This document shows, piece after piece, positions 10 through 27,392 of a stretch of 64,000 nt of DNA. The notes below the pieces were generated by a model. That model was given only the letters and a program-made list of their open reading frames with translations. It did no database searches and was not told where the DNA came from. Both the position numbers and the translations under genes were made by a program. The stretch is from assembly GCA_963666215.2 (NCBI GenBank), contig CAXWPL010000004.1:160001-224000 (forward strand), given 5' to 3'. The DNA is from Acidobacteriota bacterium (GTDB taxonomy: Bacteria > Acidobacteriota > UBA890 > WLXD01). Numbering within the stretch: position 1 is the stretch's first letter; the number at the start of each line of letters is the position of its first letter.

Positions 10-1917
10 TCATGCGCCGAACGCCTCCTCGAGCTCATGGAACAGGGCTTCGCGAACCAGCACGACGGGTAGGAACCCGATCCGGTACACGCGATCGTGG
101 AAGTCCTTCAGCGTCCCACGCTCATTCAGCTCCCGCATCTTCTGGAAGTAGTCCTCGCGCAGCAGCATCCATTGGAAGTACCCGAGCGTGGGGGCGGCGT
201 AGTCGGCACCAGTCCGCGCGGTGATGTTATCGATGTTGATCCGGCCACCCTCTGGAACGAATCCGATCGTCTCGGTCTCGAGCTCGACCGCCTCGTCGTA
301 GCTCATCCCGCCGGTGTTGAGTCCCGAGTCGATGATCACCCGGCCGAAGCGCCACAGCTTGAGGCGCAGTGTCTCAAGCTCGTAAACATCCTGCTTGTCG
401 GCGGGGAACCAACCGTACTGCGGATCGGGCGTCAGCTCCCATTCGATGTAGTAGCACCAGGCCTGATTGGAGTAGTAGCTGCTGAGATAGCGACGCAGTC
501 GGCGGGGATTCTCCTTCTGATAGAGGCTCTGCAGGTGGTGCCCGGGATAGACCTCGTGGGTGGTGATGGCGTACATGAACGAGGCTTCCTTCTCGGTCAG
601 GTTCGCCTCCGCCATCGCGTCCGGCCAATCTGGAGACACCGGGATGATCCGCCAGGCCGACTTCCGACTCGGCGAGTCGGGCGACACGCCCGGCCCGAAC
701 CCCCACCACTGGGATGCCCACATGCTGGGGTCGGCCGCCGCCATGATCGAGTCGTCGTCGTCCCAGGGAATGCTCACCAGGTCGTTTTCAATGACCCAAT
801 CGCGGCTCCGCCGCGCTGCTTCGAGGTGCTTGAATACGAGCTGCTCGGCGAAGAAGTGATCCTGCTTCTCGTCCTTGATGATCTCGAGCCACGTGCGCTC
901 CGGATCGATTCGCCGCGCCTTGACCTCGAGGTGGTGGCGAATGATATCGAACTGCTTCCAACCCCAATCGTGGTAGCCAGGGACGCGCGTGAAGCTCTCC
1001 TGGCCGCGAGCGATGCGGCGCAGGTGGATGTCGTTCTCCGGGAACATGTAGCGGTGCTCCTGGAGGCCGTTGAAGACCTCCGCACCGACCCGCCAGTCGC
1101 CCTCCGGAAGCCGCGGCAGATCCTCGCGCAGGAAGGCACGAAAGCGCGCCATGGCGTCGGCTGCGCGCCCGCTCTCGGCCAGAAGACGGTCGCGCAAGGC
1201 GTCGTCGTCGACGCGCTCGGCAAAAGCCGGCAGATCGTTGGCCAGCACCGATTGAAAACCCACCAAGGTCTGATCGGTGAGCTCGATCCAACGCGCGATG
1301 TACTGGTCGAGGTTAGCGCGGGCGCTCGTCAGGCGCGTTTGCAGCAGCTGCAGATCGTCGATCAGGTCCGCTGCCCGCGCCGCCGGGGGCCGCGGATCGA
1401 CGGAGATCTTGTAGACGATCGGGCCGTTGTTGAAGTACAGGCGAGGATCCTGCCGCCAGCGCTGCACGTTCTCGGCCACCAGCAGATCGGCGCGCAGCGT
1501 GCCCTCCAGGAAGCGGTAGTCGATGTCCTGGTCGAACGTCAGCGCGCCGCGGTCGATGTCACCGAGCTCGTCGATGAACCGCCGCAACGTCGCCGTCTGC
1601 CGCCGAAAGCCCGCCGCGTCCATCTCCCGCAGCGCCGCGTCACCGCGGGTGATTGGCGCCGAGAGGGCGTCCCCGCCACCGACACCCTGAACCTCGCGCA
1701 GGTACCGATCGACCAGCCCCTCGAACTGCCAGCCAGCCTCCTGAGCCGGCGCCAGGCTCGACCCTGCACCGACGGCGGCCCCCATCAGCAGCAGCAGCGA
1801 CAGAACGACGGTGGCGGCCTCGCCGCTGCGCGCACGGTGCCGTCCGTCTCCGGAAGCCCGCAGATCCTCGGCGCACGGCCTTGGGGACCTCCACCGCGAC
1901 CTGCCGGAGCGCATCAT
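10..1917 (-). CDS. DUF885 family secreted protein, paralog 1
   Basis: THEVYPGHHLQ motif and C-terminal LKDFHDRVYRIG...LVRE typical of DUF885. The ATG at 1917 overlaps the upstream TGA (TGATG). The ORF-track extension to 2376 lies inside paralog 2. A hydrophobic signal follows a ~35 aa basic extension, so the true start may be later. Confidence 0.85.
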   Translation of the reverse strand: MMRSGRSRWRSPRPCAEDLRASGDGRHRARSGEAATVVLSLLLLMGAAVGAGSSLAPAQEAGWQFEGLVDRYLREVQGVGGGDALSAPITRGDAALREMDAAGFRRQTATLRRFIDELGDIDRGALTFDQDIDYRFLEGTLRADLLVAENVQRWRQDPRLYFNNGPIVYKISVDPRPPAARAADLIDDLQLLQTRLTSARANLDQYIARWIELTDQTLVGFQSVLANDLPAFAERVDDDALRDRLLAESGRAADAMARFRAFLREDLPRLPEGDWRVGAEVFNGLQEHRYMFPENDIHLRRIARGQESFTRVPGYHDWGWKQFDIIRHHLEVKARRIDPERTWLEIIKDEKQDHFFAEQLVFKHLEAARRSRDWVIENDLVSIPWDDDDSIMAAADPSMWASQWWGFGPGVSPDSPSRKSAWRIIPVSPDWPDAMAEANLTEKEASFMYAITTHEVYPGHHLQSLYQKENPRRLRRYLSSYYSNQAWCYYIEWELTPDPQYGWFPADKQDVYELETLRLKLWRFGRVIIDSGLNTGGMSYDEAVELETETIGFVPEGGRINIDNITARTGADYAAPTLGYFQWMLLREDYFQKMRELNERGTLKDFHDRVYRIGFLPVVLVREALFHELEEAFGA

Positions 1918-3731
1918 CAATCGGCCCGGCTGCCGCCGAACTCCTGCTCGAGCTCGTGAAAGAGTGCCTCTCGAACGAGCACGACCGGCAGGAAGCCGAT
2001 GTGGTAGATGCGGTCGTGAAAGTCCTTGAGCGTGCCCCGCTGATCGAGCTCCCTCATCTTCTGGAAGTAATCCTCTCGCAACAGCATCCACTGGAAGTAG
2101 CCGAGCGTCGCCGCGGCCGTCCCGGATCCGCCCGAGGTGATGCCGTCGATGTTGATCTGGGCGCCACGCAGCACGAACCCGATGGTCTCCGACTCGAGCT
2201 CGACGGCCTCGTCGTAGGTCATCTGGCCCGTGTGCAGCCCGGAATCGATGATCACCCGCCCGAGGCGCCACAGCTTGGTCCGCAAGGCCTCGAGCTCGTA
2301 CACGGCCTGTTTGTCGGGTGGATACCAGCCGTACTGCGGGTCCGGTGTCAGCTCCCACTCGATGTAGTAACACCAAGCCTGGTTCGAGTAGCTTCCCTCG
2401 TAGACCCGCAGCCGCCGTGCGTTCTCGTTTGAGTAAAGGCGTTGCAGGTGGTGCCCCGGATAGCCCTCATGGGTGGCGATCACGTAGGCGAAGCTGGCGT
2501 CCTTCTCCTGCAAGTTCCCTTCGGCGATGTCGTCCGGCCAATCCGGATTGACGGGGATAATCGTCCAGCCTGACTTGCGCGACGACGAGCCCGCCGGGAC
2601 GGTGCCGGCGAACCCCCACCACTGGGCCGCCCACAAGCTCGGATCGCCGGCCACCATGATGTTGTCGTCGTCGTCCCAGGGAATCGTCATCAGGTCGTTT
2701 TCGATGACCCAGTCCCGCGACCGCCGCAGGATCTTGTGGTGCTCGTAGACGACCTGCTCGTTGAAGAAATGGTCCTCCTTCTCGTCGCGGAGGATCTCCA
2801 GCCAGCTGCGCTCGGGATCGATGAGCCGCGCCTTGACCTCGAGGTGATGGCGGACGATGTCGAACTGCTTCCAGCCCCAGTCTCGATAGGCGGGCACACG
2901 GCTGAAGCTCGGGGCCCCACGAGCGATGCGCCGCAAGTGGATGTCGTTTTCCGGAAACATGTAGCGCAGCTCGTGCATGGCGTTGAAGACTTCGGCGCCG
3001 ACACGCCAGTCGCCCTCGCGGCGGCCGGGGAGCTCGTCGGTCAGGAACGTGCGGTAGTCCCGCAAGGCAGCAAGCGCCCGTTCGTTCTCGGCCAGAAGCT
3101 CTCCCTGGAGCGGCTGCGGCACGCGGCTGGCGAACTGCGGCAGGTTGGTCGACAGGCTGACCACGAAGCCGTCGAGGTTCTCGACGGTCTGCTGCGTCCA
3201 TCGCGGCACGTACTGGTCGACGTTGTCCTTGCCGTTGGCGAGACGCGTCTGCAGCAGTTGCAGGTCGGCGACCAGATCGGCGGCTCGCTCCACCGCCGGC
3301 CGCGGATCGGCCGTCAACTTGTAGACGATCGGCCGCACCGCCAGGTAGGTTCCGGGGCTCTGACGCCACCGCTGTACGTTCTGATCCCAGACGACGCCGG
3401 AGCGCAGGATGCTGTCGAGGAAGCGGTAGTCGATGTCCTGGTCGAAGGTCAGCGTCGAGCGATCGATGGCCTCGAGAGCCTGCAGCACGCGTCGCTTGGT
3501 CTCGAGTGCCCCGACGAAGCTGTCGGCGCTCATGTCGTTGGGGCCGCGTGCCGCGCCGATGCCGCGCACCTCGGCCAGGTAGCGGTCCACGAGCGCCTCG
3601 AAAGCCTCGTTCTCGGCGGCCGGTGCACCGGCGCTCCCGAGCACCGCCACCGGCTGGCCGACAGCGGCAAAAGCCATCAAGCCGACCAGAGCCACGCGCG
3701 ACAAGGTACCGAGAATCCTGGGCGTCTTCAT
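1917..3731 (-). CDS. DUF885 family secreted protein, paralog 2
   Basis: THEGYPGHHLQ motif; signal peptide MKTPRIL...; GGGAGG RBS at 3743-3738 before ATG 3731. Confidence 0.88.
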   Translation of the reverse strand: MKTPRILGTLSRVALVGLMAFAAVGQPVAVLGSAGAPAAENEAFEALVDRYLAEVRGIGAARGPNDMSADSFVGALETKRRVLQALEAIDRSTLTFDQDIDYRFLDSILRSGVVWDQNVQRWRQSPGTYLAVRPIVYKLTADPRPAVERAADLVADLQLLQTRLANGKDNVDQYVPRWTQQTVENLDGFVVSLSTNLPQFASRVPQPLQGELLAENERALAALRDYRTFLTDELPGRREGDWRVGAEVFNAMHELRYMFPENDIHLRRIARGAPSFSRVPAYRDWGWKQFDIVRHHLEVKARLIDPERSWLEILRDEKEDHFFNEQVVYEHHKILRRSRDWVIENDLMTIPWDDDDNIMVAGDPSLWAAQWWGFAGTVPAGSSSRKSGWTIIPVNPDWPDDIAEGNLQEKDASFAYVIATHEGYPGHHLQRLYSNENARRLRVYEGSYSNQAWCYYIEWELTPDPQYGWYPPDKQAVYELEALRTKLWRLGRVIIDSGLHTGQMTYDEAVELESETIGFVLRGAQINIDGITSGGSGTAAATLGYFQWMLLREDYFQKMRELDQRGTLKDFHDRIYHIGFLPVVLVREALFHELEQEFGGSRAD

Positions 3732-3868
3732 ATCGGGCCTCCCTTGGCTGAACACCGGACCATCCACGGATCGCCGCCGCGGCAGGGCCCGAGCCGAACG
3801 GGGCTCGACGCCCGGGTCCGGATTTGACCGGCATCAGTGACACCACCTCCGGGAACGTGCCCGAGGAT

Positions 3869-5671
3869 CTAGCTGAACTCCTCCTCCAGGTCGTGGAACA
3901 TGGTCTCCCGTACCAGGACGACCGGCAGGAAGCCGATCTTGTAGACGCGGTCGTGGAAGTCCTTGAGCGTTCCCCGCTGGTTGAGCTCGCGCATCTTCTG
4001 GAAGTAGTCCTCGCGCAACAGCATCCACTGGTAGTAGCCCACCGTCGGCGCGGCCGTCCTGGATCCGCCCCCGGTGATGCCGTCGATGTTGATCTGGGCG
4101 CCACGCAGCACGAACCCGATGGTCTCCGACTCGAGCTCGACGGCCTCGTCGTAGGTCATCCGACCCGTGTGCAGCCCGGAATCGATGATCACCCGCCCGA
4201 GGCGCCAGAGCTTCAGGCGCAGGGTCTCGAGGGCGTAGATCTCCTGCTTGTCGGGCGGGAACCAACCGTACTTGGGATCCGGGGTCAGCTCCCACTCGAC
4301 GTAGTAGCACCAGGACTGGTTCGAGTAGCTGCCCGCGTAGACCCGCAAGCGGCGAGGGTTCTCGTTGCGGTAGAGACTCTGCAGGTGATGCCCCGGGTAG
4401 ACTTCGTGCGTGGCAATGGCGTACATGAAGCTGGCGTCCTTCTCCGACAGGTTCTGCTCCGCTATGTCGTCCGGCCAGTCCGGGGCGACCGGTATGATCC
4501 GCCAGGCCGACTTCCGGGTGATGGTCTGCCCGGCCGGCACGCCAGGGCCGAAGCCCCACCACTGCGACGACCATCGGCTCGGGTCGGCCGCTTCCATGAT
4601 CGAGTCGTCGTCGTCCCAGGGGATGCTCACCAGGTCGTTGTCGATGACCCAATCGCGGGACGCCCGCGCAGCCTCATGGTGCTTGAAGACGAGCTGCTCG
4701 GCGAAGAAGTGATCTTCCTTCTCGTCGCGGAGGATCTCCAGCCAGGTGCGCTCGGGATCGATGAGCCTCGCCTTGACCTCGAGGTGGTGCTTGATGATCT
4801 CGAACTGCTTCCAGCCCCAGTCGTGATAGTCGGGCACCCGGGTGAAGCCCGGCTGGCCGCGGGCGATGCGACGCAGGTGGACGTCGTCTTCCGGGAACAT
4901 GTAGCGCAGCTCCTGCATAGCGTTGAAGACTTCGGCGCCGACCCGCCAGTCGCCCTCGGGGCGGCCAGGGAGCTCGTCGGTCAGGAACGAGCGATAGTCC
5001 CGCAGGGCAGCAAGCGCGCGTTCGTTCTCCGCCAGAAGCTCTCCCCGGAGCCGCTGCGGCACGCGCCCGGCGAAGGCCGGCAGGTCGTTCTCCAGGACGA
5101 CCACGAAGCCGTCGAGAATCTCGACGGCCTCCAGCGTCCAGCGTGGCACGTACTGGTCGACGTTGTCCTTGCCGTTGGCGAGTCGCGCCCGCAACAGTTG
5201 CAGATCGGCAACCATCCCGGCGGCACGCTCCGCCGGCGGCCGCGGATCCGCCGTTAGCCTGTACATGAAGCGCCCCGCCGCCACGTAGCTCCCCGGGTTC
5301 TGACGCCAGCGCTGTACGTTCTCGCCCCAGACGACGCCGGAGCGCAGGATGCTGTCGAGGAAGCGGTAATCGATGTCCTGGTCGAAGGTCAGCGTCGAGC
5401 GGTCAATGGCCTCGAGAGCCTGCAGCACGAGTCGCTGGGTCTCGAGCGCCCTGGCGAAGCTGTCGGCGCTCATGTCGTTGGGGCCGCGTGCCGAGCCGAT
5501 GCCGCGCACCTCGGCCAGGTAACGGTCCACGAGCGCCTCGAAAGCCTCGCTCTCGGCGACCGGCGCAGCGGCGCTCCCGAGTACAGCCACCGGGTGGCCG
5601 ACCGCGGCAACGGCCATCAAACCGACCAGAGCCAGGCGCGACAACGTACCGAGGATCCTGGGCGTGCTCAT
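3869..5671 (-). CDS. DUF885 family secreted protein, paralog 3
   Basis: 600 aa ORF with signal peptide and THEVYPGHHLQ motif; purine-rich RBS. Confidence 0.88.
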   Translation of the reverse strand: MSTPRILGTLSRLALVGLMAVAAVGHPVAVLGSAAAPVAESEAFEALVDRYLAEVRGIGSARGPNDMSADSFARALETQRLVLQALEAIDRSTLTFDQDIDYRFLDSILRSGVVWGENVQRWRQNPGSYVAAGRFMYRLTADPRPPAERAAGMVADLQLLRARLANGKDNVDQYVPRWTLEAVEILDGFVVVLENDLPAFAGRVPQRLRGELLAENERALAALRDYRSFLTDELPGRPEGDWRVGAEVFNAMQELRYMFPEDDVHLRRIARGQPGFTRVPDYHDWGWKQFEIIKHHLEVKARLIDPERTWLEILRDEKEDHFFAEQLVFKHHEAARASRDWVIDNDLVSIPWDDDDSIMEAADPSRWSSQWWGFGPGVPAGQTITRKSAWRIIPVAPDWPDDIAEQNLSEKDASFMYAIATHEVYPGHHLQSLYRNENPRRLRVYAGSYSNQSWCYYVEWELTPDPKYGWFPPDKQEIYALETLRLKLWRLGRVIIDSGLHTGRMTYDEAVELESETIGFVLRGAQINIDGITGGGSRTAAPTVGYYQWMLLREDYFQKMRELNQRGTLKDFHDRVYKIGFLPVVLVRETMFHDLEEEFS

Positions 5672-16209: not shown

Positions 16210-16302
16210 CTGGGGCCTCCCCCGCAGTAGATCCCCAGCGAGCCCGAGACGGCCGTCCGCGATCCCAGGCATGCCAGGGTAATAATTAGTCAAAGGTGTT
16301 TT

Positions 16303-16316: not shown

Positions 16317-16589
16317 CAACAACTGCAAGTCGTGTGCCCGGACACCATCGCCGCGAAGTTGCTCGAAAATTACGTGAAGTCGTAGATATGAGACGTAAAT
16401 CTACGTAATTACGGGGAAGACGAAGGTTTCTCTATGTAGCAACTGGCCGCAAGAATTCAATTAATTGAACAATGGTTTCAAAAGGCCGAAGAGAACAGGT
16501 CCTCTTGTCAAGCGATCGGCTCCGAATTCATGCCGTCGCGCTAACCAACGGCGATGGTTCATCCATCGACGGTTTCAGGGGTCGGACCC

Positions 16590-18953: not shown

Positions 18954-21755
18954 TCAGAAGTTGATCCGCGCCCCGATCCGGAAGACCCGCGGCGGCAGCA
19001 CCGCGATCGGCGTTCCGAGATTGCCACCGGTGGTCGTGCCCTCCACCAGGATGTTGTTGGCATTGAGCGCGTTGAAGCCATCGATCATCGCCTCGACATC
19101 GACGTTCCCGACCCGGAAGGTCTTGGCCAACCTCAGGTCGAGGATGTTGGTTGCGTCCTGTCGGAACGATCCGTTCTCCTCTACCCGAATGTTGTAGAAG
19201 GAGCCGGTGGTCTGATCCGCGACCAGAAGGGTGCGAGCCATGTTGTTGGCGCGGCCGTCAACGTTACGGCCGCCCGAGTACCGGTACGCGAACCCGAGGT
19301 TGATGTCGTACGGCGCCACATAGTAGCCGGAGACGCGACCGTGGAGCGCCGTGTCGAGCCCGTGGGCACCGTAGGGGAAGATCTCCCGAGTGTTCCGGTC
19401 CGAGAAGCCGCCGATGCGGCCGTACTTGTCGGAGATCGTCGCCGAGGCGGTCACCATCCAAGTTCCGTCGAAGCGACGGGTGTAGATGAAATCGACGCCG
19501 TGGTAGCGGTTGTAGTTGTCCTCCTGGTTGGTCAGCGTGGGCACGTTGTCGGCACCGACGAACGCCGGGTCGATCGACCAGTACTCGACCGTGCTGCTCG
19601 TGATCGGATCGACGGCGGTGCTCGGGATGTTCCAGGCCGAGGACGGGATTCCATCCCAGGTCTGGGCCCAGAGATTGTTGTTCTTTCGGTACGTGAAACG
19701 GGCCGAGAGCGAGCTTCGCCGGGTGAGCTCGCGCTCGATCGAGAGGTTGAACTCGTCGGCGTGCGGACTCCTGAAGTCGTCCGCCATCCGTCGGCTGCTG
19801 GTCAGCTCGACGATGCCCGTGGTGTTGAACTCGTCCGGGAAGTCCGCGACGTCGTTGCCGTTGAGATCGTTCCACGGGGCCGCCGCGCTGGCATTGACCC
19901 TACGGATCCCGTAGCTGTGGATGTCAGCGTTGTCGATCCCGAAGTAGTAGCGTCCGAAGCTGCCCTTGACCACGGTCTGGCCCGTGCCCATGAGGTCCCA
20001 GGCAAAGCCGACCCGCGGCGACAAGGTCGTCCAGCCGGCGATGCCGTCCTGCGGCTCTACTGGCGGCTGCTCCGAGAAGAAGACGCCGATCCAAGGCCCC
20101 GTCTGGGCCTTCTGCTCCGGGATGTTGGCGTTGTGTTTCTCGACGCGGACGCCGAGGTTCAGCGTCAGGTTGCCGATGCGCACATCGTCCTGGACGTAGC
20201 CCATCCACACCTGCTGGTAGCTGTTGGCCTCGACCGGGTGGTTGCGCACGCTCACCCGGAAGGGCACGCCGTCGGCGTACTGGCGCTCCAGCGCGCCGTT
20301 CGACGAACTGCGCGTGTAGTAGGAGCTGCGCCGGTGCTCGACCCCGAACTTCAGGTCGTGCGAGGCGCCCAGCATGTCGTCATTGAACAACGTGTAGTTG
20401 GTGCCCATCGTCCACAGGTGGGCAATCGCCCTGAACTCGATTCTCGCCGCTCCAAACCGGTGTCCCGTGACGACGTCGACGGCCGTCGTGGTATCACCGA
20501 CTCCTGTCTGGTAGTTCAACGGGAAGGGCGAGTTGCCGTAGCCGATGTAGGCGTCCAAGAACCCCGTGTTGCCGAAAACGCGGTTGTACTTGGCCTGCAG
20601 CGCGAAGTAGCGGTAGGCTTCGATCCAGGTCGCCTCTGAGGCCACGAACTGGCCGACGTTTCGGGTCGGCCGGTCGTACCACTGGCGCTCGCCGTACAGC
20701 ATGACCGTGCTCGCGTCGTCGGGCCGAGCGGTGATCTTCGCGTTGACGTTCTTGATCGTCACGCCGTCGGTGCAGGGTACCCCTTCGGGCGTGATGCAGT
20801 TGAGCTTGATCGGGAATACGGCGTACGAGCGACCCCCGGTGTAGAACCACGCCCTGTCACGCTTGATCGGGCCACCCAGGTTCAGGGTGGCCAGTTTGAT
20901 GTAGTCCACGCCACCGGCAGAGCTGGTGACGCCGGCCTTGCGGAGATCGTCGTCGATATTGCTCGACTGTAGGCTGTCGTTCTCGAGCATGCCCTGGAGC
21001 ATGCCGTGGAAGTCGTTGCCGCCGTCCCTCACCACGGCGTTGATGATGACGCCGCCCTTCGAGTACTCGGCGGTGATGCCGGCGGTCGTGAACTGGATCT
21101 CCTCGAAGGCGTCCGTGTTGTAGTAGCCGAGCCCGATCCCGTGCTCGAACAGCGTCATGTCCATGCCGTTGATGTTGTACTGCTGCTGCTCGCGCTCCGA
21201 GCCGTGTACCTCGAAGGCGTCGAGCATGACGCTGCCGCTGCCGCCGACGTTCTCACGGTTGGTCTGCATCCCCGGAACCTGCTGGATGTACGACCACACG
21301 TCCATCGCCGAGGGAATTTCCTGGAGCTGATCCTCGCCCCAGGTGAAATCGGAGGAGGAGTTCGCGAGGTCGATGATCGGCGCCTCACCGGTAACGGTGA
21401 GGGTCTCCGCGACACCGGCGAGCTCGAGCAGCGCGTCGAACGTCAGGGTGCTAGCGACGTGGACTCCGATGTCCGCTACCTGAACCGTCCTGAAGCCGGT
21501 CAGGGTCACCAGGAGCTCGTACGTGCCCGGGGGCAGACCGGGAAACCGATAGATACCCGCGAGCGTCGTCGTCGCCGTCCGAGTCCCTCCCAGGAGCGCC
21601 TCGCTGCTCAACGTCACCGTGACCCCGGGCAGTGCCGCCCCGTCAGGATCTGTAATGATCCCTCGGATGGCTCCGGTATCCCGGCCTTGCGCGAGCGCCA
21701 CGCTCGCGACACTGAGAATGAGCAAACAACAGAACAAGCATCGGGCCGTTCGCAT
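18954..21755 (-). CDS. TonB-dependent receptor 2, copy B
   Basis: Identical to copy A except one L/V residue near the C terminus. Confidence 0.9.
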   Translation of the reverse strand: MRTARCLFCCLLILSVASVALAQGRDTGAIRGIITDPDGAALPGVTVTLSSEALLGGTRTATTTLAGIYRFPGLPPGTYELLVTLTGFRTVQVADIGVHVASTLTFDALLELAGVAETLTVTGEAPIIDLANSSSDFTWGEDQLQEIPSAMDVWSYIQQVPGMQTNRENVGGSGSVMLDAFEVHGSEREQQQYNINGMDMTLFEHGIGLGYYNTDAFEEIQFTTAGITAEYSKGGVIINAVVRDGGNDFHGMLQGMLENDSLQSSNIDDDLRKAGVTSSAGGVDYIKLATLNLGGPIKRDRAWFYTGGRSYAVFPIKLNCITPEGVPCTDGVTIKNVNAKITARPDDASTVMLYGERQWYDRPTRNVGQFVASEATWIEAYRYFALQAKYNRVFGNTGFLDAYIGYGNSPFPLNYQTGVGDTTTAVDVVTGHRFGAARIEFRAIAHLWTMGTNYTLFNDDMLGASHDLKFGVEHRRSSYYTRSSSNGALERQYADGVPFRVSVRNHPVEANSYQQVWMGYVQDDVRIGNLTLNLGVRVEKHNANIPEQKAQTGPWIGVFFSEQPPVEPQDGIAGWTTLSPRVGFAWDLMGTGQTVVKGSFGRYYFGIDNADIHSYGIRRVNASAAAPWNDLNGNDVADFPDEFNTTGIVELTSSRRMADDFRSPHADEFNLSIERELTRRSSLSARFTYRKNNNLWAQTWDGIPSSAWNIPSTAVDPITSSTVEYWSIDPAFVGADNVPTLTNQEDNYNRYHGVDFIYTRRFDGTWMVTASATISDKYGRIGGFSDRNTREIFPYGAHGLDTALHGRVSGYYVAPYDINLGFAYRYSGGRNVDGRANNMARTLLVADQTTGSFYNIRVEENGSFRQDATNILDLRLAKTFRVGNVDVEAMIDGFNALNANNILVEGTTTGGNLGTPIAVLPPRVFRIGARINF

Positions 21756-21843
21756 CTGGGGCCTCCCCCGCAGTAGATCCCCAGCGAGCCCGAGACGGCC
21801 GTCCGCGATCCCAGGCATGCCAGGGTAATAATTAGTCAAAGGT

Positions 21844-21929: not shown

Positions 21930-21982
21930 TCTTGACCTTGGCCGCCGGGACGGCCCTCTTTCGTTCACAGCGAGCACAGCCG

Positions 21983-22750
21983 ATGCGATCTGAGCTTCTT
22001 CAGGGCAAGACGGCGCTGATCACTGGCGGCGCTCGTGGAATCGGCCAGGCCGTTGCGAGACGCTTCAGTGCGGAGGGCGCGACGGTTGCTCTGATCGATC
22101 TGCCCGCCTCCAAGCTTGCCGAGACCGCCCGGGAATTGCAGGCATCGAACGGCGCCACGGTCCACGCCATCGAGGCGGACCTCCGGAACATCGACAACCT
22201 CTGTGGAGCGGTTGCGGAGACCGTCGAGCGACTCGGCAGGATCGACGTACTCGTGAACAACGCCGGCATCGCGCCGGAGCTGCCTTTCCTCGAGACCGGT
22301 CCCGAGCAATACGACCAGATCATGGCGGTAAACGCCCGTGGTTCCTTCTTTTGCGCCCAGCAGGTCGCACGGCACATGATCGGCAACGGCGGCGGCAGCA
22401 TCGTGCAGATCGCGTCGATCTGTGCGTTTCCGGCCGGCGCGCTCCGGAACTATGCCGCCTACAACATGTCGAAGGCAGCGGTCCGCCAGATGGCCGCAAG
22501 CCTGGCCAACGAGCTCGCCCGTCACTCCATTCGAGTCAACGCTGTCGCCCCTGGCAGCATCGACACCGAGTTGACGCGCAGCCTTCTGCCAACGTCCAAG
22601 AAGCAGGAGGAGGTGGTGCGGACAATCCCGATGAGGCGGCTGGGGCAGCCTCGAGAGATCGCCGCCGCCTGCGCCTTTCTCGCCTCCGACGAGGCCAGCT
22701 ACATCACCGGGGAGACACTGCTTGTCGACGGCGGCTGGCGGGTCACGTGA
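21983..22750 (+). CDS. SDR family NAD(P)-dependent oxidoreductase
   Basis: TGGARGIG, VNNAGI, YNMSK, and ASYITGETLLVDGG motifs. Confidence 0.93.
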   Translation: MRSELLQGKTALITGGARGIGQAVARRFSAEGATVALIDLPASKLAETARELQASNGATVHAIEADLRNIDNLCGAVAETVERLGRIDVLVNNAGIAPELPFLETGPEQYDQIMAVNARGSFFCAQQVARHMIGNGGGSIVQIASICAFPAGALRNYAAYNMSKAAVRQMAASLANELARHSIRVNAVAPGSIDTELTRSLLPTSKKQEEVVRTIPMRRLGQPREIAAACAFLASDEASYITGETLLVDGGWRVT

Positions 22751-23937
22751 ACCTCGGACGCGACCGCCTCGCCCACCGCCTCGACGAGGTCCCCGTCTCG
22801 GGAATACGTCGCGTCGTGCAGGCGCTGACCGATTGGCAGTCCACGCACGACGAGGAGGCCATCCCTTTCCACCTGGGGATGCCCGACTTCGATACCCCTC
22901 GGCACATCAAGGCAGCCCTCACGAGCGCGCTCGACGCTGGCTTCGTCGGCTACACCGCCAGCCGCGGTATTCCGGAGTTGCGCCAGGCGATCGCCAACAA
23001 GCTGGCGCGCGACAACGACATGGAGGTCGATCCCACCAGTGAGATCGTCGTCACGTGCGGCGCCAACGAGGCGATCAGCGCCGCGATCACCGCGACGATC
23101 GACCCGGGAGACGAGGTGATCGTCCCCGACCCGGCGTGGCCCCACTACGTGTACTGCCTGCGGATGGCCGGCGCGGTGCCGGTCTACTGCAAGCTGTCGG
23201 AGGCCGACGGGTTCGCGATGTCTCCGGAAGCCGTCGCCGAGTGCTGGTCGGAGCGCACCCGAATGGTGATCCTCAACTCACCCCACAACCCGACCGGGGC
23301 GGTGATGTCACGGGCCCAGATCGAGGCCATCGCCACAATGGCCAAGGAGCGCGGCGCCTGGCTGTTGTCGGACGAGCCCTACGAATACATCCTGTTCGAC
23401 GACCAGCACGTCAGCCCGGCCTCGCTACCGGGGATGCACTCGACCGTGCTGACCGTGGGGTGCCTGTCCAAGACGTATGCCATGACCGGGTGGCGCCTGG
23501 GCTGGCTCTGTGGCCCGCCGGAAGTCGTTGATGCCGTGAACCGCGTTCATCTGTATACCGTCACCTGTGCCGTCTCGTTCGTGCAGAAGGCGGCGATCGC
23601 CGCCCTCGCCGAGAGTCAGCAATGCGTCACCGACATGGTCGCCGAGTACCGTCGCCGTCGCGACCTGGTCGTAGCCTTGTTGCAGGAGATCCCGGGGGTT
23701 GAAATCGCGGCGCCGGCCGGCGCGTTCTACGCCTTTCCCAACGTCAGCGCCTTCGGTCTGCCATCGGAGGATCTGGCGATGCGCCTGGTTCAGGAGTGCG
23801 GCGTCGGCGCCGTCCACGGAACCGCCTTTGGCGACGCCGGCGAGGGCTACCTTCGGCTGGCCTTCACCTGCTCGGAGCAACACATCCGCGAGGGCGTCAG
23901 CCGCATGCGAGCCCTGCTCGGTGGGCTCGACCACTGA
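22747..23937 (+). CDS. PLP-dependent aminotransferase class I/II (AspAT-like)
   Basis: GMPDFDTP, NSPHNPTG, SDEPY, and SKTYAMTGWRLG motifs; GTG start overlaps the SDR stop (GTGA). Confidence 0.92.
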   Translation: MNLGRDRLAHRLDEVPVSGIRRVVQALTDWQSTHDEEAIPFHLGMPDFDTPRHIKAALTSALDAGFVGYTASRGIPELRQAIANKLARDNDMEVDPTSEIVVTCGANEAISAAITATIDPGDEVIVPDPAWPHYVYCLRMAGAVPVYCKLSEADGFAMSPEAVAECWSERTRMVILNSPHNPTGAVMSRAQIEAIATMAKERGAWLLSDEPYEYILFDDQHVSPASLPGMHSTVLTVGCLSKTYAMTGWRLGWLCGPPEVVDAVNRVHLYTVTCAVSFVQKAAIAALAESQQCVTDMVAEYRRRRDLVVALLQEIPGVEIAAPAGAFYAFPNVSAFGLPSEDLAMRLVQECGVGAVHGTAFGDAGEGYLRLAFTCSEQHIREGVSRMRALLGGLDH

Positions 23938-23947
23938 CCCTCTGCGC

Positions 23948-25537
23948 TCACTGCGGCGGGTTGCCGTGGCGCCGGCTCGGCAGCTCCACCTGCTTGTTCT
24001 CGAGCGCTGCCAGCGAACGTATCAACACCTGGCGGGTGTCTCGCGGATCGATGATGTCGTCAACGAAGTCGAACCGGTAGTTCTCTGCGAGCTTGAAGAT
24101 GTCGATGTAGGTCTCGCGATACTCGGCGCAGCGGGCCTCCAACACCTGCCGCTCCTCGGCGGAATCGGCCGCCGCCTTGACGTCCTTGGACCAGATCACC
24201 GCCGCTGCCGACTCCGGGCCCATGATCGAGATTTCCGCCGTCGGCCAGGCGAAGGAGAAATCAGCGCCCATCGTCTTGGATCCCATCACCACGTTGCCAC
24301 CGCCGTAGGAGCGACGCACGATCACCGAGATCTTGGGCACGGTGGCGCACGCGTATCCGTAGAGCAACTTGGCGCCGTGGCGCAAGATCCCCTTGTCTTC
24401 CCAGTCGCGGCCGACGACGAATCCGGGCGTGTCGACGAGCGTGACAATGGGGATGTTGAAGGCGCTGCAGAACGTCATCAGCCGCATGTACTTGTCGGAG
24501 CTGTCGTTCTCCATCACCCCGCCCATCTCCTCGGGGTTGTTGGCGATCAGCCCAACGCTGCGACCCCCGAGCCGGCACAGCCCGGTGATGATGTTCGGCG
24601 CGAACTCGTCCTTGAGCTCCAGAAAGCTATCCCTGTCGACGATGCAGTCGATGATCTCGTGCATGTCGTACGTCATCCGCGGCGAGTCCGGGAGAATCTC
24701 GAGAAGCGCTGCGTCCCTGCGATTCGACGGGTCCTGCGTGTCGACGACCGGAGGCGGCTCGCCGCTGTGCTGCGGCATGTACGAGAGCAGACGCTTGGCC
24801 TGTTCCAGAGCGTCATGGTCGTCGGCGGCGATGAGGTCGCACTGCCCGGCAGCCATGTTCGAGAATGCTGAGCCTACGATGGAATCGTCGATGTCTTCCC
24901 CAGTCGCCGCCTGGGTCAGCCGAGGGCCGCCGAGCCACATGTAGGCTGTGCGCTCGGTCATGATCAGGAAGTCGGAGAGCATCGGCGAGTAGCCCTGGCC
25001 CGCCGCGCATGGACCCATCAGAACCTGAATCTGCGGCACGACGCCTGAATAGACCGACTGATTGATGAAGATCTGATTGAACGGCCGGCTCAAAGCACTG
25101 CCCTCGTGCAATCGGGCTCCGGCTGAGTCGAGCATGCCCACCACCGGCACGCGCAGCTTCCCGGCCAAACCGACAATCGCGGCGATCTTGGCGGCGTGAC
25201 TCTCACCGGCGCTGCCGGCGAGAATCGTGAAATCGGTGCAATAGCAGCAGACCTGACGACCAGCGACGTCGCCGTAGCCGGTGATCACGCCGTCGGCAGG
25301 CGTGTGTCGCTCCCGCATGCCGAAATCGACGTTCTGGGAGCGCACGAGTCCCCCCAGCTCGACGAAGGTCCCTGCATCGTAGAAGGCCTCGATGCGCTCG
25401 CGCGCGGTGGCCTTGCCACGATCGTGCTGCTTGGCCACCGCCTTTTCGCCGCCCATGCCGGACTGCTCTGCCTTGCGCTCGCGGAGCTTCTGAAGCAGAC
25501 GGTCCATGGGCCTCGCTTTGTCGTCGATCGAGCTCAT
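23948..25537 (-). CDS. Acyl-CoA carboxylase carboxyltransferase (beta) subunit, PccB-like
   Basis: QHDRGKATARERI, DSAGARLHEG, VDTPGF, RRSYGGG, and C-terminal RRHGNPP motifs. Confidence 0.92.
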   Translation of the reverse strand: MSSIDDKARPMDRLLQKLRERKAEQSGMGGEKAVAKQHDRGKATARERIEAFYDAGTFVELGGLVRSQNVDFGMRERHTPADGVITGYGDVAGRQVCCYCTDFTILAGSAGESHAAKIAAIVGLAGKLRVPVVGMLDSAGARLHEGSALSRPFNQIFINQSVYSGVVPQIQVLMGPCAAGQGYSPMLSDFLIMTERTAYMWLGGPRLTQAATGEDIDDSIVGSAFSNMAAGQCDLIAADDHDALEQAKRLLSYMPQHSGEPPPVVDTQDPSNRRDAALLEILPDSPRMTYDMHEIIDCIVDRDSFLELKDEFAPNIITGLCRLGGRSVGLIANNPEEMGGVMENDSSDKYMRLMTFCSAFNIPIVTLVDTPGFVVGRDWEDKGILRHGAKLLYGYACATVPKISVIVRRSYGGGNVVMGSKTMGADFSFAWPTAEISIMGPESAAAVIWSKDVKAAADSAEERQVLEARCAEYRETYIDIFKLAENYRFDFVDDIIDPRDTRQVLIRSLAALENKQVELPSRRHGNPPQ

Positions 25538-25630: not shown

Positions 25631-25954
25631 TCAGTCGTCGATGCTCAGCACGAGGCGCAGCAGATTGGGGCCGTAGGCCTTGCCAGTTTGGTCCATCATC
25701 AAGGTCTGAGTGGCGCCACCGCCCAGGGCCTGCGTCATGACGAACTCGAGCGACTCGAGATTGTCCATGGGGTAGCAGGTTACCTCGCCCTTGACGATTC
25801 CCCTGAAATGCTCGCGGACCACCGCGGCCGTGAGGTGCTTCTTCAGGAGCGCATAGCACTCCGAGTCCTTGGCCATCACACCGATGTTGATGACGTCACC
25901 CTTGTCGCCCGAGCGTGCGTAGGCGATTTCACGCAGCTGAACCGTACGAGCCAT
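25631..25954 (-). CDS. AtuA-related small ferredoxin-fold protein
   Basis: LREIAYARSGDKGD...ALGGG...DQTGKAYG; ATG overlaps the upstream TGA. Confidence 0.85.
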   Translation of the reverse strand: MARTVQLREIAYARSGDKGDVINIGVMAKDSECYALLKKHLTAAVVREHFRGIVKGEVTCYPMDNLESLEFVMTQALGGGATQTLMMDQTGKAYGPNLLRLVLSIDD

Positions 25955-27321
25955 CACGCCACCTCCGTGATCTCTACCCGCTGCGGCACGAGCTCGCGGG
26001 GAATCAACGTTGGCCACAGGGTCACAATCTCTCGCGGCGGTGGCGGCATGATCACCGCCGTCATGCCGAGAGGACCGTGGGTCCACAGGTGGGTCACTTC
26101 GCGCCGCACGAGGTTCGCGTTCTCCTTGCTGTCGGTGCGCACCGCCAGGCGCACGCGGATCTCGTTCACGTCCTCCAGATCGGCCGGCATCTTCGAAAGC
26201 GACCCGTGGATCGAGTTCAGCCCGATGTAGTCGAAGCGGATCTCCCGGATCGGGAGACCGATCTCGCGGAAGCGACCTCTGAGGAAGCTCTCGCAGAACT
26301 GGGCCTTCTCGTAGGCGTCGGGCCAGCAGGCGGTGATCTCGGACTGCCCTACCCAGCCGTCCCGGTAGCCGATCGTGAGCTTCAGCATGTCGGGCTTGGG
26401 CTTGCCGCGAAAGCCGGTGACCTTGACTCGGTCCTTGCCAACGGTCTCCAGCTTGATTCCGGTCAGGTCGCTGATGCCATCGGCCATGATGTAGTTGGCA
26501 GGATCGTGAACCTCGTAGACCAGGTGCTCCTTGACGGTCCATTCGGTGACCATCCGCCCACTGCCCTCGGCCTTGGTGATGATCGCGTCACCGTTCTCGT
26601 AGACCTCGGCGATGGGGAAGGCCACCCGCCACGGCTCCTCGATCTCCTTCCAGAAGTTCGACATACCTCCGGCGCAGCCCGACGAGCACTCGATGATGTG
26701 CCCGATCGCGATGGCCGCGCCCATCAGATCCGGGTCGTCGAGCGACCAGCCGAGCTCCTGGACCATCGGCGCCAGATGAGCCGAGCTGTCGGTGGCGCGC
26801 CCGGTGATGACGAGGTCCGCGCCCGCAGCCAGCGCCTCCACCTGGCCCTCAGCACCGATGTAGACATTCGCCTGCAAGATGTCGGCGGCGATACGATCGA
26901 TGTTCTCCTCGCCGGTCTCCATATTGGCGAACTGCAGGCCCTGATCCCGGAAATCCTGCAGGCGATCGAGAACGTCGTCACCGAGGACCGTGGCGATCTT
27001 CATGCCCTCGAGGCCCAGCCGCTTCGCCAGGCCCGTCGCCGCCTTCCCGGCCGCCTCGACGTTGGCGCCCCCGGCGTTGGTACACATGCGGATGCCGGCC
27101 GGTTGCGTAATCGGGAGCAGCCGCTCCATCCAAGGGATCAGGTCCGGTATGTAGCCGTACTCGGGCCGCTTCGCCTTGATCTTGTTGAGGATCGACATCG
27201 TCAGCTCGGCCAGGTGGTCGAACCCGAGGTACTGGACGTTTCCCTTCTCGACGAGCTCCACCGCCGGGTCGAGCATGTCGCCCCACGAGGCGGAGCCACA
27301 GCCGATGCGAACTTTCTTCAT
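25954..27321 (-). CDS. atuA: Acyclic terpene utilization AtuA family protein (DUF1446)
   Basis: RIGCGSASWGD, DHLAELTMS, TNAGGAN, ANVYIGA, ITGRATD, EHLVYEVHDPANY motifs. Confidence 0.88.
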   Translation of the reverse strand: MKKVRIGCGSASWGDMLDPAVELVEKGNVQYLGFDHLAELTMSILNKIKAKRPEYGYIPDLIPWMERLLPITQPAGIRMCTNAGGANVEAAGKAATGLAKRLGLEGMKIATVLGDDVLDRLQDFRDQGLQFANMETGEENIDRIAADILQANVYIGAEGQVEALAAGADLVITGRATDSSAHLAPMVQELGWSLDDPDLMGAAIAIGHIIECSSGCAGGMSNFWKEIEEPWRVAFPIAEVYENGDAIITKAEGSGRMVTEWTVKEHLVYEVHDPANYIMADGISDLTGIKLETVGKDRVKVTGFRGKPKPDMLKLTIGYRDGWVGQSEITACWPDAYEKAQFCESFLRGRFREIGLPIREIRFDYIGLNSIHGSLSKMPADLEDVNEIRVRLAVRTDSKENANLVRREVTHLWTHGPLGMTAVIMPPPPREIVTLWPTLIPRELVPQRVEITEVA

Positions 27322-27372
27322 AGCGTGAATCTCCTGAAAAGACCGAGGCGTCAGCTTCGGGTTGGGACGCCA

Positions 27373-27392
27373 ATTATACTGATTGGACAGTA
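27373..27392 (-). promoter_or_regulatory. -10 TATAAT with overlapping palindrome TACTG-N6-CAGTA upstream of atuA
   Basis: ATTATA at 27373-27378 reads TATAAT on the minus strand; TACTGATTGGACAGTA at 27377-27392. Confidence 0.55.

Follow-up and report, generated by a model that had tools for sequence, protein, structure and literature searches.

Oar of Myxococcus xanthus is needed for secretion of the protease PopC. The Oar subclass of TonB receptors is defined by a CarboxypepD_reg N-terminal extension together with a Plug domain (PMC6434023). DUF885 is placed by Pfam in the Peptidase_MA clan (PMC12572635). An earlier, sequence-only reading of the DNA considered here had called DUF885 functionally little characterised; in the literature searched, as far as its text was accessible, there is indeed no functional study of a DUF885 (PF05960) protein, and its activity is nowhere demonstrated. 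Here we describe a locus that combines Oar-subclass receptors with DUF885 genes.

The window (the whole stretch of 64,000 nucleotides that was analysed) contains a region that is best read as two adjacent modules, each conserved separately. Module 1 would be a periplasmic peptide-scavenging operon with an oxidative step, and module 2 a separate Atu-like unit; we give this assignment about an even chance. Module 1 is a single minus-strand operon that occupies positions 10-21839 and continues to the left of the window (G000:C4:156270-160009, G000 being the genome of the window). Its 12 co-directional genes are, in order, receptor B, S9, receptor B', an S9 remnant, receptor A, five DUF885 genes, PQQ1 and PQQ2. 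The genes overlap or are separated by short gaps, none of which contains a terminator-like site, and no regulator gene is found among them. The genes listed by the sequence-only reading are all present, but its anatomy had to be corrected in receptor count, duplication and left end: it had overlooked a third receptor, the duplication and both PQQ genes. It had also supposed that the array may go on left of base 1. The operon does extend beyond that point, but with the two PQQ-type genes and no further DUF885 gene.

Not two but three TonB receptors are encoded, each with CarboxypepD_reg and Plug domains. Receptor B (TBDR-B; 18954..21839, minus strand), the first gene of the operon, and receptor A (TBDR-A; 9550..12387, minus; CarboxypepD_reg 65.4 bits, Plug 24.0 bits against a cut-off of 23.9) belong to the Oar subclass and are 64% identical. 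Their likely starts are at 21755 (MRTARC...) and 12360 (MRVARC...), respectively. Receptor A ends in ...RIEF, and its orthologues are 80% identical in G003, a genome of another genus in the same family, and 43% identical in G234. Receptor B' (TBDR-B'; 13408..16293, minus) is a duplicate of receptor B. Positions 12935-16317 repeat 18481-21863, the two segments differing at 3 of 3,383 bases (99.91% identity), and 12475-12934 matches 16498-16956; therefore what lies at 12505..13221 (minus), by this repeat alignment, is the remnant of a second S9 copy. The remnant matches no Pfam family. It has an internal deletion (the counterpart of 16957-18480) and a 1-base indel, and lacks about residues 96-604, the catalytic serine included. 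Receptors B and B' are 99.9% identical products of a 5,546-bp tandem duplication that left a gutted S9 behind, a very recent event in the lineage of the window. A unique AT-rich spacer of 180 bp (16318..16497) runs from the end of the duplication to the region downstream of S9. Both the duplication joint (21863->16318, back 5546; depth 12.2) and the deletion joint (16952->18481; depth 8.9) occur in an independent sequencing run, X4.

The intact S9 gene (16590..18767, minus; Peptidase_S9 154 bits, DPPIV_N 101 bits) encodes a serine peptidase of the DPP IV / prolyl peptidase type with a GMSYGG serine motif; its closest solved relative is 2D5L (E 1.7e-49). Its N-terminus (...VTAC) is lipobox-like, and the product is probably a lipoprotein, as had been proposed. 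The enzyme shares 81% identity with its orthologue in G003 and 64% with those at two further loci, L017 and L018. Contigs from all three RNA libraries, which come from one study, span 18547-21863, i.e. receptor B, and those in X11, X12 and X13 extend into the start of S9; because these runs were selected by receptor B' words, they are unable to rank genes.

With such receptors the direction of transport has to be considered. If they acted like Oar of M. xanthus, they would carry periplasmic DUF885 and S9 proteins out across the outer membrane. This would suit the Oar-defining domains of all three, their co-occurrence with six secreted hydrolase candidates and an operon that has no gene for an inner-membrane transporter. 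However, in most related loci it is a classical receptor without the CarboxypepD_reg extension that adjoins DUF885. L017 and L018 keep an S9-DUF885-PQQ1 set with no receptor inside 10 kb. Furthermore, S9 and PQQ1 resemble lipoproteins, and the electron acceptors that PQQ2 needs are periplasmic. We know of only one case of export by a TonB transporter. Export is very improbable here.

The five DUF885 genes stand in tandem on the minus strand, as had been claimed, and score 98-128 bits against PF05960 (cut-off 32.4). They are paralog 1 (10..1917; 127.8 bits), paralog 2 (1917..3767; 116.9 bits), paralog 3 (3869..5671), paralog 4 (5726..7522; 113.4 bits) and paralog 5, the first of the array (7535..9343; 98.4 bits). 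All five N-termini are basic and then hydrophobic, as judged by eye and not by a signal-peptide program. At 1917, where translational coupling had been reported, the ATG of paralog 1 overlaps the stop of the upstream gene (TGATG). Paralog 2 likely starts at an internal Met, that of MKTPRILG. Identity to the first paralog is 66-69% and to the third 66-81%, the third being a duplicate of paralog 2 (81%) that is specific to the window. Orthologues in G003 are 93% identical to paralog 2 and 89% identical to paralog 4. In a quick tree, paralog 1 clusters with copies from L003, L004 and L005 (SH-aLRT 100) and paralog 5 is the sister of a large gammaproteobacterial clade (SH-aLRT 82). Since the window paralogs interleave with gammaproteobacterial sequences in this tree, the subtypes are older than the spread. 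Among 40 sequences from two subfamilies, H422, P426, G427, H428 and E459 of the motif H-E-x-x-P-G-H...E are invariant, and E423 is retained in at least 90%. An AF2 model of paralog 3 (pLDDT 90.4) is matched best by three uncharacterised DUF885 structures (3U24, 3IUK, 3O0Y) and next by M32 carboxypeptidases, 5WVU (E 7.9e-3) followed by 5GIV and 3DWC; the M32 matches are weak (TM 0.29-0.35).

The two genes left of the window (G000:C4:156270-160009) encode PQQ1, a PQQ-like propeller of 536 aa that looks like a lipoprotein, and PQQ2, a cytochrome c plus PQQ dehydrogenase protein of 710 aa. The cytochrome c domain of PQQ2 is N-terminal and carries CLACH, a CxxCH motif. Its NCBIfam score is 341.8, under the cut-off of 480. 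G000 has a second S9-PQQ2 pair at C2:761084-765398. The genome is 92% complete, and no pqqE scored above its cut-off in it. What a PQQ dehydrogenase would contribute to the use of peptides is not obvious.

How general is this arrangement? With two peptide patterns we gathered 32 loci with DUF885 relatives, 18 of them with a DUF885 at least 60% identical (close loci) and 14 with lower identity. Close loci are found in the window's own phylum, in Acidobacteriota and in Gammaproteobacteria. PQQ2 (61-73% identical) or PQQ1 (64%) follows DUF885 directly in 15 of the 16 close loci that have a downstream flank. None of the 14 lower-identity loci has the PQQ gene. Paralog 1 orthologues in particular adjoin it at loci of Woeseiaceae and of other Gammaproteobacteria. 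A TonB receptor is present in 12/14 close loci with an upstream flank, and the combination of receptor, S9, DUF885 and PQQ is seen again in other marine bacteria. In G003, module 1 is syntenic with the window; the G234 locus consists of three DUF885 genes, an Oar-like receptor, another DUF885 gene and PQQ2. The DUF885 clade of the window occurs in 3 of 401 genomes of its own phylum. The idea of a TonB-receptor-linked locus of secreted hydrolases is thus borne out across phyla. Comparison of these loci suggests that the conserved core moving between phyla is a receptor, DUF885 and a cytochrome c-PQQ dehydrogenase, sometimes with S9. The five-gene DUF885 set is an expansion of this core in the window lineage.

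Module 2 (21932-27321) consists of two facing operons, both of which the sequence-only reading had recognised and which Pfam matches and gene overlaps support. On the plus strand, an SDR oxidoreductase (21932..22750; adh_short_C2 238 bits), whose top NCBIfam match is a glucose 1-dehydrogenase subfamily (264 bits, cut-off 215), is followed by a class I/II PLP aminotransferase (22747..23937; Aminotran_1_2 227 bits). The GTG start of the latter overlaps the SDR stop (GTGA), and no NCBIfam model matches it above the model's cut-off. On the minus strand are an AtuA (DUF1446) family protein (25954..27321; PF07287 436.6 bits), a small AtuA_ferredoxin-domain protein (25631..25954; PF23544 83.5 bits) whose ATG overlaps the AtuA stop (TGATG), and an acyl-CoA carboxyltransferase related to AtuC, PccB and MmdA (23948..25537; Carboxyl_trans 503 bits; TIGR01117 594.8 bits, under the cut-off of 998.8). 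In 25 metagenome AtuA loci the small gene adjoins AtuA 22 times, and all three genes are adjacent 12 times. The SDR-aminotransferase pair belongs with them: at L049 and L050 an aminotransferase (64-65% identical) and an SDR (59%) adjoin the three genes, and in another genome, G401, SDR and aminotransferase lie 10 kb from the AtuA operon.

Operator-like inverted repeats TACTGACTCGTTAGT (21848-21862) and TTGACCGGTCGGTCGA (21909-21924) occupy the receptor B / SDR intergenic region, and TACTGATTGGACAGT(A) (27377..27391) precedes AtuA by 56-70 nt. The matching place upstream of AtuA in G003 carries TACTGACCAGATAGTAGAAT, and related inverted repeats occur in metagenome loci. Within the window, the pattern TACTGA-N6-AGT is found exactly twice, ahead of SDR (21848) and ahead of AtuA (27377), with a chance expectation of 0.11; as it was derived from those two sites, only the absence of further ones is informative. 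The related promoter palindromes noticed earlier hold to this extent, while no inverted repeat of at least 30 nt was found. As operator-like repeats they tie the two operons of module 2 together. Since receptor B and SDR share an intergenic region, one regulator could act on both modules.

Such a shared region would also suit a single system, in which a peptide or acyl-amide enters through the receptors and is trimmed in the periplasm by S9 and DUF885, and the adjacent genes then transaminate its carbon skeleton (aminotransferase), oxidise it (SDR and PQQ enzymes) and (de)carboxylate and cleave it (carboxyltransferase and AtuA). One pathway of this kind had been proposed for the region. G000 and G003 both have the two blocks side by side, and in a survey of 11 genomes of the family both occur in these two and neither in the other nine. 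However, these genomes are kin, so their shared adjacency is one observation, and in G003 aminotransferase and carboxyltransferase are 10 kb apart, with other genes between them. In G401 a PQQ2 (61% identical) stands with another PQQ-like gene directly beside carboxyltransferase, small subunit and AtuA, so PQQ2 bridges both gene sets; Chattopadhyay and colleagues (2010, cited in PMC5487730) are said to have described a PQQ alcohol dehydrogenase in acyclic terpene (Atu) catabolism of P. aeruginosa. Yet in the same G401 the AtuA (72% identical) is ~423 kb from the S9-DUF885-PQQ1 locus. Elsewhere the linkage of DUF885 to a receptor recurs but that to AtuA or carboxyltransferase does not: AtuA, carboxyltransferase or aminotransferase matches occur in 0/32 DUF885 loci, and DUF885, receptor, S9 or PQQ matches in 0/25 metagenome AtuA loci. 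Two of five genomes with the DUF885 module lack an AtuA match (E <= 1e-20), and two more have one that is only 33-38% identical. We consider a single system quite unlikely. Judging by these distributions, module 2 is widespread without module 1 and would not be required for it.

We prefer two modules, the first being an envelope system that would scavenge protein-derived substrates. Its Oar-subclass receptors would import oligopeptides or other protein fragments, and the S9 lipoprotein, going by its family, would remove N-terminal di- or tripeptides. PQQ2, a quinohemoprotein, would together with PQQ1 oxidise a moiety with a hydroxyl group in the substrate or product and hand electrons to the respiratory chain via its own c-type haem, as its family and CxxCH motif suggest. 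Module 2 would be an Atu-like unit in the cytoplasm, made up of two operons. Several observations weigh against the reading of module 1: its operon has genes for neither an inner-membrane transporter nor a regulator, pqqE did not reach its cut-off in G000 and PQQ2 stays under its own, the M32 fold matches of DUF885 are weak, and the type of receptor varies by lineage (Oar-type in G000, G003 and G234, classical in Gammaproteobacteria).

The tight coupling between DUF885 and PQQ genes may point to a substrate other than a plain peptide. It could even be a hydroxyl-rich or glycosylated compound (glycoconjugate, polyol, terpenoid or other natural product), for which the PQQ dehydrogenases would be key and the DUF885 proteins would be amidases, esterases or binding proteins. 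DUF885 and PQQ dehydrogenase are the tightest conserved pair, a PQQ-type sugar dehydrogenase of the GSDH family precedes the receptor in 6/18 close loci, and residues 146-710 of PQQ2 match structures named by their depositors alcohol or sorbose dehydrogenase (4CVB, 7WMD, 4MH1; E 1e-137 to 1e-143). But the operon itself encodes an S9 enzyme, the frequent neighbours of DUF885 are mainly peptidases (S9, M24, M1) and amidohydrolases, with beta-lactamase-family proteins, and no glycoside hydrolase or esterase family appears among the scanned ORFs. We think a non-peptide substrate unlikely. The DUF885 motif bears on both readings: its departure from the canonical HEXXH would suit amidases, esterases or binding proteins, but the invariant H, E, H, E set and M32-like fold favour a metallohydrolase. 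For peptide scavenging, the five secreted DUF885 proteins would be zinc metallopeptidases differing in specificity, with HExxPGH in place of HEXXH.

The window spans G000:C4:160001-224000 and has a G+C content of about 65%; its left part is taken up by a minus-strand operon, referred to here as module 1. In reading order, the operon starts with TonB receptor B (18954-21839) and continues with an S9 peptidase recognized by Pfam (16590-18767), TonB receptor B' (13408-16293), a 238-aa ORF without a family that self-comparison identifies as an S9 remnant (12505-13221), TonB receptor A (9550-12387) and five DUF885 genes matching PF05960 (7535-9343, 5726-7522, 3869-5671, 1917-3767 and 10-1917). CarboxypepD_reg and Plug are found in each receptor. 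The stop of the fourth DUF885 gene overlaps the ATG of the fifth as TGATG at 1917. The operon does not end at base 1: further left are PQQ1, a PQQ-like propeller of 536 aa and a probable lipoprotein, and PQQ2, a 710-aa protein combining cytochrome c and a PQQ dehydrogenase, after which a convergent gene follows. The sequence-only reading had seen two receptors and five DUF885 genes and had supposed that the array might extend beyond base 1. The DUF885 count and the coupling at 1917 stand, but there are three receptors; the operon does extend leftwards, though as PQQ1 and PQQ2 and not as further DUF885 genes. Thus what that reading observed is confirmed in part, and its interpretation is supported in part. 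A promoter and terminator scan of 9000-28000 gave no promoter-like sites and 12 terminator-like sites against 8.8 expected, none of them within the operon's intergenic gaps. Of the ORFs Pfam-scanned at 27.5-46.6 kb, none matched a regulator family.

How do we explain the extra receptor? Self-comparison reveals that 12935-16317 repeats 18481-21863 with 3 mismatches per 3,383 bases and that 12475-12934 repeats 16498-16956; hence there are three receptor genes, two of which are near-identical. The tandem duplication is 5,546 bp in size and comprises receptor B plus S9 (window 12475-21863). One S9 copy subsequently suffered a 1.5-kb internal deletion, and the remnant ORF has lost approximately residues 96-604, the GMSYGG serine among them. 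Two of the three mismatches sit in the edge palindrome (16306 and 16315 for B', about 21852 and about 21861 for B). Contigs of sequencing run X4, whose study differs from that of the best-matching run, contain both the joint 21863->16318, which goes back 5546 (depth 12.2), and the joint 16952->18481 (depth 8.9). Since both junctions occur in a run from another study, the duplication is real and no artefact of this assembly. It is absent from G003, a syntenic genome from a different genus of the same family and the closest one having the locus. In X4 the contig depth is 21.7-24.6 over receptor B, 14.9 over mid-S9 and 17.2 over the right flank; such depths do not measure copy number, but they hint that the duplication is present in only some of the cells. 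Such a near-identical 5.5-kb repeat shows receptor gene amplification in action.

Receptors A and B are 64% identical, about 935 aa long, and both end in Phe, a length and a terminus in keeping with a Plug-and-barrel transporter. CarboxypepD_reg (PF13620) scores 62.8-65.4 bits in all three receptors (cut-off 32.3), and Plug is borderline, with 24.0 bits in A (cut-off 23.9) and 21.5 in B and B'. Pfam gave no PF00593 barrel match in A, B or B', receptor B had no match among solved structures at E <= 0.01, and neither the receptors nor AtuA and its small subunit are represented by an NCBIfam model. A CarboxypepD_reg extension plus Plug is the architecture of the Oar subclass, according to PMC6434023. 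In Oar of Myxococcus xanthus, that source describes the N-terminal extension, Plug and barrel in the order that the window receptors resemble. Oar is needed there for export of PopC, so one may ask whether the receptors of module 1 export the hydrolases encoded with them. We regard export as very improbable.

The left block had been proposed to be a TonB-receptor-linked locus, and its recurrence bears this out. A scan with one genome per species yielded 32 loci with relatives of the window DUF885, from Woeseiaceae, Halieaceae, Rariloculaceae, other Gammaproteobacteria and Marinacidobacterales; the window proteins were aligned to these loci, their ORFs were clustered, and cluster representatives were named by Pfam. 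In 18 loci the DUF885 is at least 60% identical. A TonB receptor is present in 12 of the 14 that have the upstream flank, and a PQQ gene lies directly downstream in 15 of the 16 that have the downstream flank (PQQ2 in 13, PQQ1 in 2; the exception is locus L005, from Chromatocurvus halotolerans DSM 23344, where a receptor adjoins the DUF885 but PQQ2 is missing). The receptors of these close loci are of classical type and lack the Oar extension. The PQQ gene is absent from all 14 loci with DUF885 of lower identity. Over all 32 loci, the neighbours include a second DUF885 subfamily and a GSDH-type PQQ sugar dehydrogenase (10 loci each), a methyltransferase (9), an M24 peptidase (8), S9 and Sortilin/BNR proteins (4 each), and M1, beta-lactamase-family and amidohydrolase genes in single loci. 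In four Rariloculaceae-type loci (L015, L034, L007, L011), the DUF885, PQQ2 and methyltransferase genes precede genes for an amino-acid ABC transporter, a DAO-family oxidoreductase and a DHDPS-family protein, a set that we take to resemble hydroxyproline or D-amino-acid catabolism.

Within the phylum of the window the DUF885 clade is rare: at E <= 1e-80 it was found in 3 of 401 genomes. The syntenic genome G003 has the order PQQ2, PQQ1, four DUF885 genes, receptor A, about 8.5 kb of IS-like ORFs, S9 and receptor B, and in G234, another carrier, three DUF885 genes are followed by an Oar-like receptor, a fourth DUF885 and PQQ2. The roughly 8 kb between receptor A and S9 in G003 (L042:12682-L043:562; G003:C2:1915681-1923561) hold small ORFs whose N-termini look, by eye, like those of IS elements or transposases. 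These IS-like ORFs suggest that the locus is a rearrangement hot spot.

The five DUF885 paralogs are mutually 66-81% identical, and all five match PF05960 over profile positions of about 13-532 with 98-128 bits (cut-off 32.4). Across 40 sequences of two DUF885 subfamilies, H422, P426, G427, H428 and E459 do not vary, and at least 90% of the sequences have E423. Together they form a candidate metal motif, H422-E423-x-x-P-G-H428 plus E459, whose spacing differs from that of HEXXH. A sequence search against solved structures matched only 3U24 and 3O0Y, both uncharacterised. The fold of an AlphaFold model (pLDDT 90.4) matches 3U24 (E 1.8e-15, TM 0.66/0.72), 3IUK and 3O0Y (E 1e-10 to 1e-12) and then, weakly, M32 carboxypeptidases and ACE2. 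Pfam assigns DUF885 to the Peptidase_MA clan, as stated in PMC12572635. An ESM Atlas look-up returned DUF885 clusters only, and no fused DUF885 was found at E <= 1e-10 among proteins of 1051-3000 aa, which is weak evidence.

A quick tree (SH-aLRT support, midpoint root) was built from 50 rows, namely c0-cluster members of at least 500 aa together with the copies of G000 (the source genome), G003 and G234; it includes neither shorter fragments nor the second DUF885 subfamily (c3). Each window paralog pairs with its G003 orthologue, and these pairs are interleaved with gammaproteobacterial sequences. It follows that the DUF885 subtypes are old and that the module has moved between phyla. The source genome has about 12 DUF885 genes in total. 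Another cluster of them lies 22-32 kb left of the window (G000:C4:127800-137880, locus L002), with a Sortilin/BNR protein of 1,098 aa, a DUF885 58% identical to ours, an MFS transporter, a luciferase-like monooxygenase and one more DUF885; its counterpart in G003 is placed between the aminotransferase and the carboxyltransferase. Also left of the window, at L001:8061-13430 (G000:C4:148061-153430), two luciferase-like monooxygenase genes enclose a set of genes for 2-oxoacid dehydrogenase E1 alpha/beta and E2.

The intact S9 gene matches DPPIV_N (101 bits), PD40 (72 bits) and Peptidase_S9 (154 bits), has GMSYGG at residue 583, and has DPP IV-type enzymes as its best solved relatives. PQQ2 matches PF01011 with 189 bits and aligns over the whole propeller with the PQQ alcohol/sorbose dehydrogenases 4CVB, 7WMD and 4MH1 at E of about 1e-140 (4CVB: 8.9e-143 over residues 146-710). 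Its NCBIfam score for TIGR03075 is 341.8, below the cut-off of 480, and its c-type haem domain is seen as Cytochrome_CBB3 (36.7 bits, residues 49-129) with CLACH at residue 61. PQQ1 matches PQQ dehydrogenases weakly and in its N-terminal half only. In the source genome, 91.7% complete, the best pqqE match reaches 65.7 bits (cut-off 381), though at least 8 PQQ2-like matches occur genome-wide; the PQQ enzymes may obtain their cofactor by scavenging or may work without PQQ. A second cluster at G000:C2:761084-767172, bordering IS-like ORFs at the contig end, holds a PQQ-like propeller, an S9 (50% identical) and a PQQ2 (64% identical), so that S9 and quinohemoprotein are paired twice in one genome.

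Several suggestions can be made regarding what these genes do. We give about an even chance to the reading that the region consists of two modules, a TonB-receptor/S9/DUF885/PQQ-dehydrogenase operon that scavenges protein-derived substrates and an autonomous Atu-like module beside it. If correct, an oxidative step by PQQ-type dehydrogenases would be the unexplained part of peptide scavenging. The substrate of module 1 could instead be something other than peptide, which we think unlikely.

A bolder suggestion, which we put forward as speculative and rather unlikely, is that receptor, DUF885 and cytochrome c-PQQ dehydrogenase constitute an undescribed, phylum-crossing envelope module in which a new type of zincin (HExxPGH) would hydrolyse an imported substrate, coupled to oxidation of that substrate by way of respiration. 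Hydroxylated or glycosylated peptides, for example, would be candidate substrates, the DUF885 subtypes would set the substrate range, and the products might, in this lineage, pass into the adjacent AtuA/carboxyltransferase module. Were this true, it would supply the first functions for DUF885 and for this clade of quinohemoproteins.

That neighbouring module, module 2, begins on the plus strand with an SDR (21932-22750) and a class I/II aminotransferase (22747-23937), overlapping by GTGA. Converging on this pair from the minus strand are AtuA (25954-27321; PF07287, 436.6 bits), a small AtuA_ferredoxin protein (25631-25954) with a TGATG overlap with AtuA, and a carboxyltransferase (23948-25537; PF01039, 503 bits). 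A biotin carboxylase alpha subunit, an acyl-CoA dehydrogenase, a hydratase and an AtuR repressor were looked for between 21932 and 27321 and not found. Searching metagenomes with AtuA yielded 25 AtuA loci; in 22 of them the small subunit comes after AtuA, and in 12 the carboxyltransferase is next in line behind these two. Two of the extracted loci, L049 and L050, have an aminotransferase (64-65% identical) and an SDR (59%) adjoining the AtuA genes as in the window. Among 41 relatives, only G003 has a close AtuA (85% identical); there, the aminotransferase and carboxyltransferase are 10 kb apart, with another DUF885 and other genes between them.

The sequence-only reading had a single pathway running from the receptors into AtuA and the carboxyltransferase. 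The comparison of loci does not support this: an AtuA, carboxyltransferase or aminotransferase match occurs in 0 of the 32 DUF885 loci, and a DUF885, receptor, S9 or PQQ match in 0 of the 25 AtuA loci. AtuA finds no match at E <= 1e-20 in two of five genomes with the DUF885 module, and its matches in two others are just 33-38% identical. In G401, another carrier, an AtuA of 72% identity lies about 423 kb from the S9-DUF885-PQQ1 locus. Its operon is flanked by a PQQ2 (61% identical) and a second PQQ-like gene, with SDR/aminotransferase 10 kb off, and these PQQ genes are the best remaining argument for a metabolic link. On balance, a fully integrated pathway across both modules seems to us improbable. 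With two modules, separating the AtuA, carboxyltransferase, SDR and aminotransferase genes from module 1 defines a second conserved unit, of five genes.

The sequence-only reading had also noted related palindromes in the promoters. They exist and do join SDR/aminotransferase to AtuA/carboxyltransferase, but their link to the receptors is not clear. The pattern TACTGA-N6-AGT occurs at two sites in the window, upstream of SDR and of AtuA, and six times in the 4.65 Mb genome including these two; G003 retains TACTGACCAGATAGTAGAAT upstream of AtuA. Repeats of the type TTGAC-N6/7-GTCAA follow -10-like boxes upstream of AtuA orthologues in five loci (L049, L050, L052, L053, L054) and are also seen upstream of SDR in L049 and at 21909-21924 in the window. 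We read the repeats as putative operators that would co-regulate the two operons of module 2. The palindrome statistics are soft because the pattern was derived from the sites themselves. A regulon defined by TACTGA-N6-AGT was considered and rejected, its sites being too few and the motif, taken from two promoter sites, too short. No inverted repeats of at least 30 nt occur in 1-32000.

In three RNA libraries of one study (X11-X13), the receptor B stretch 18547-21863 is covered by contigs, which extend as far as the start of S9. S9 and AtuA have short contigs only, at depth 2-4, and most of the SDR, aminotransferase, carboxyltransferase, beta-lactamase-like and tricorn-like genes have none. 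The runs were selected by receptor B' words, and their contigs indicate presence in the libraries, nothing quantitative; uncovered parts therefore say nothing on co-expression. With the receptor gene in RNA-library contigs from three samples, the locus is probably in use in nature.

Beyond module 2 on the minus strand are a beta-lactamase-family ORF (27609-28466), which matches only profile positions 49-312 and may be truncated or have an unrecognised start, and a tricorn-like protease (28575-31632; PD40, Tricorn_C1, PDZ_Tricorn, S41) whose coding sequence changes frame at about 30371-30470. A contig of the independent run X4 crosses the frame split without an indel there, with one extra G behind 28793; the split gene may be a real pseudogene. 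Further on (39380-45513, minus strand), a 737-aa protein made up almost entirely of ankyrin repeats adjoins a gene pair of the DUF1552 and DUF1592/DUF1588/DUF1585 types.

DUF885 is a large family with solved structures and no known activity, and a search of the DUF885/PF05960 literature found no functional study. Here, in Gammaproteobacteria, Acidobacteriota and a third phylum alike, the family has fixed genomic partners: a TonB receptor and a quinohemoprotein dehydrogenase. The fixed partnership, the conserved paralog subtypes and the invariant candidate metal site make its function directly testable. As far as the literature searches show, a core of receptor, DUF885 and quinohemoprotein is undescribed.

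We know other systems that parts of the region resemble. In TonB-linked utilisation loci (the PULs of Bacteroidota and the receptor-plus-hydrolase loci of proteobacteria), receptors are likewise co-transcribed with secreted hydrolases, and copy number has likewise grown through tandem duplication. Module 1 differs in that its hydrolases are S9 and DUF885, its conserved core includes two PQQ-type dehydrogenases, and it has no SusD-like gene, carbohydrate-active enzyme or regulator: Pfam scans of all called ORFs in 10-27321 gave no SusD family, and the locus as a whole gave no carbohydrate-active enzymes, the families found being only DUF885, S9, PQQ, SDR, aminotransferase, carboxyltransferase and AtuA.

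The structural-genomics structures 3U24, 3O0Y and 3IUK share family and fold with the window DUF885 (E 1e-15 to 1e-10, TM 0.6-0.7), and 3U24 also has HEAIPGH, but identity is only 14-19% and none has an assigned function. After these, the best characterised fold matches are M32 carboxypeptidases (Taq type; 5WVU, 5GIV, 3DWC), members of the Peptidase_MA clan that likewise have an all-helical, two-lobe fold and a His/Glu/His...Glu set at comparable positions. They differ from DUF885 in having HEXXH instead of HExxPGH, the fold match is weak (TM 0.29-0.35, E 8e-3 to 0.9), and there is no match at the sequence level. The best solved relative of S9 is that of Porphyromonas gingivalis (2D5L/2Z3W; E 1.7e-49 over residues 239-721), although the match is distant; it was deposited as 'dipeptidyl aminopeptidase IV, putative' and is known as prolyl tripeptidyl peptidase. 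Type II quinohemoprotein ADHs (1KV9, 1KB0, 1YIQ) also possess a c-type haem domain, but theirs is C-terminal, whereas in PQQ2 it is N-terminal, with CxxCH at residue 61 and the propeller from about 146.

For module 2 the comparison is with the atuABCDEFGH cluster of Pseudomonas, which serves acyclic terpene utilisation, as presented in PMC4847356. Module 2 has AtuA split into two genes and an aminotransferase added, and within 21932-27321 there is no AtuF (biotin carboxylase), AtuD, AtuE, AtuH or AtuR gene. Like that cluster, it combines AtuA with a carboxyltransferase resembling AtuC (the geranyl-CoA carboxylase beta subunit) and an SDR resembling AtuB/G, and inverted repeats precede its atuA gene.
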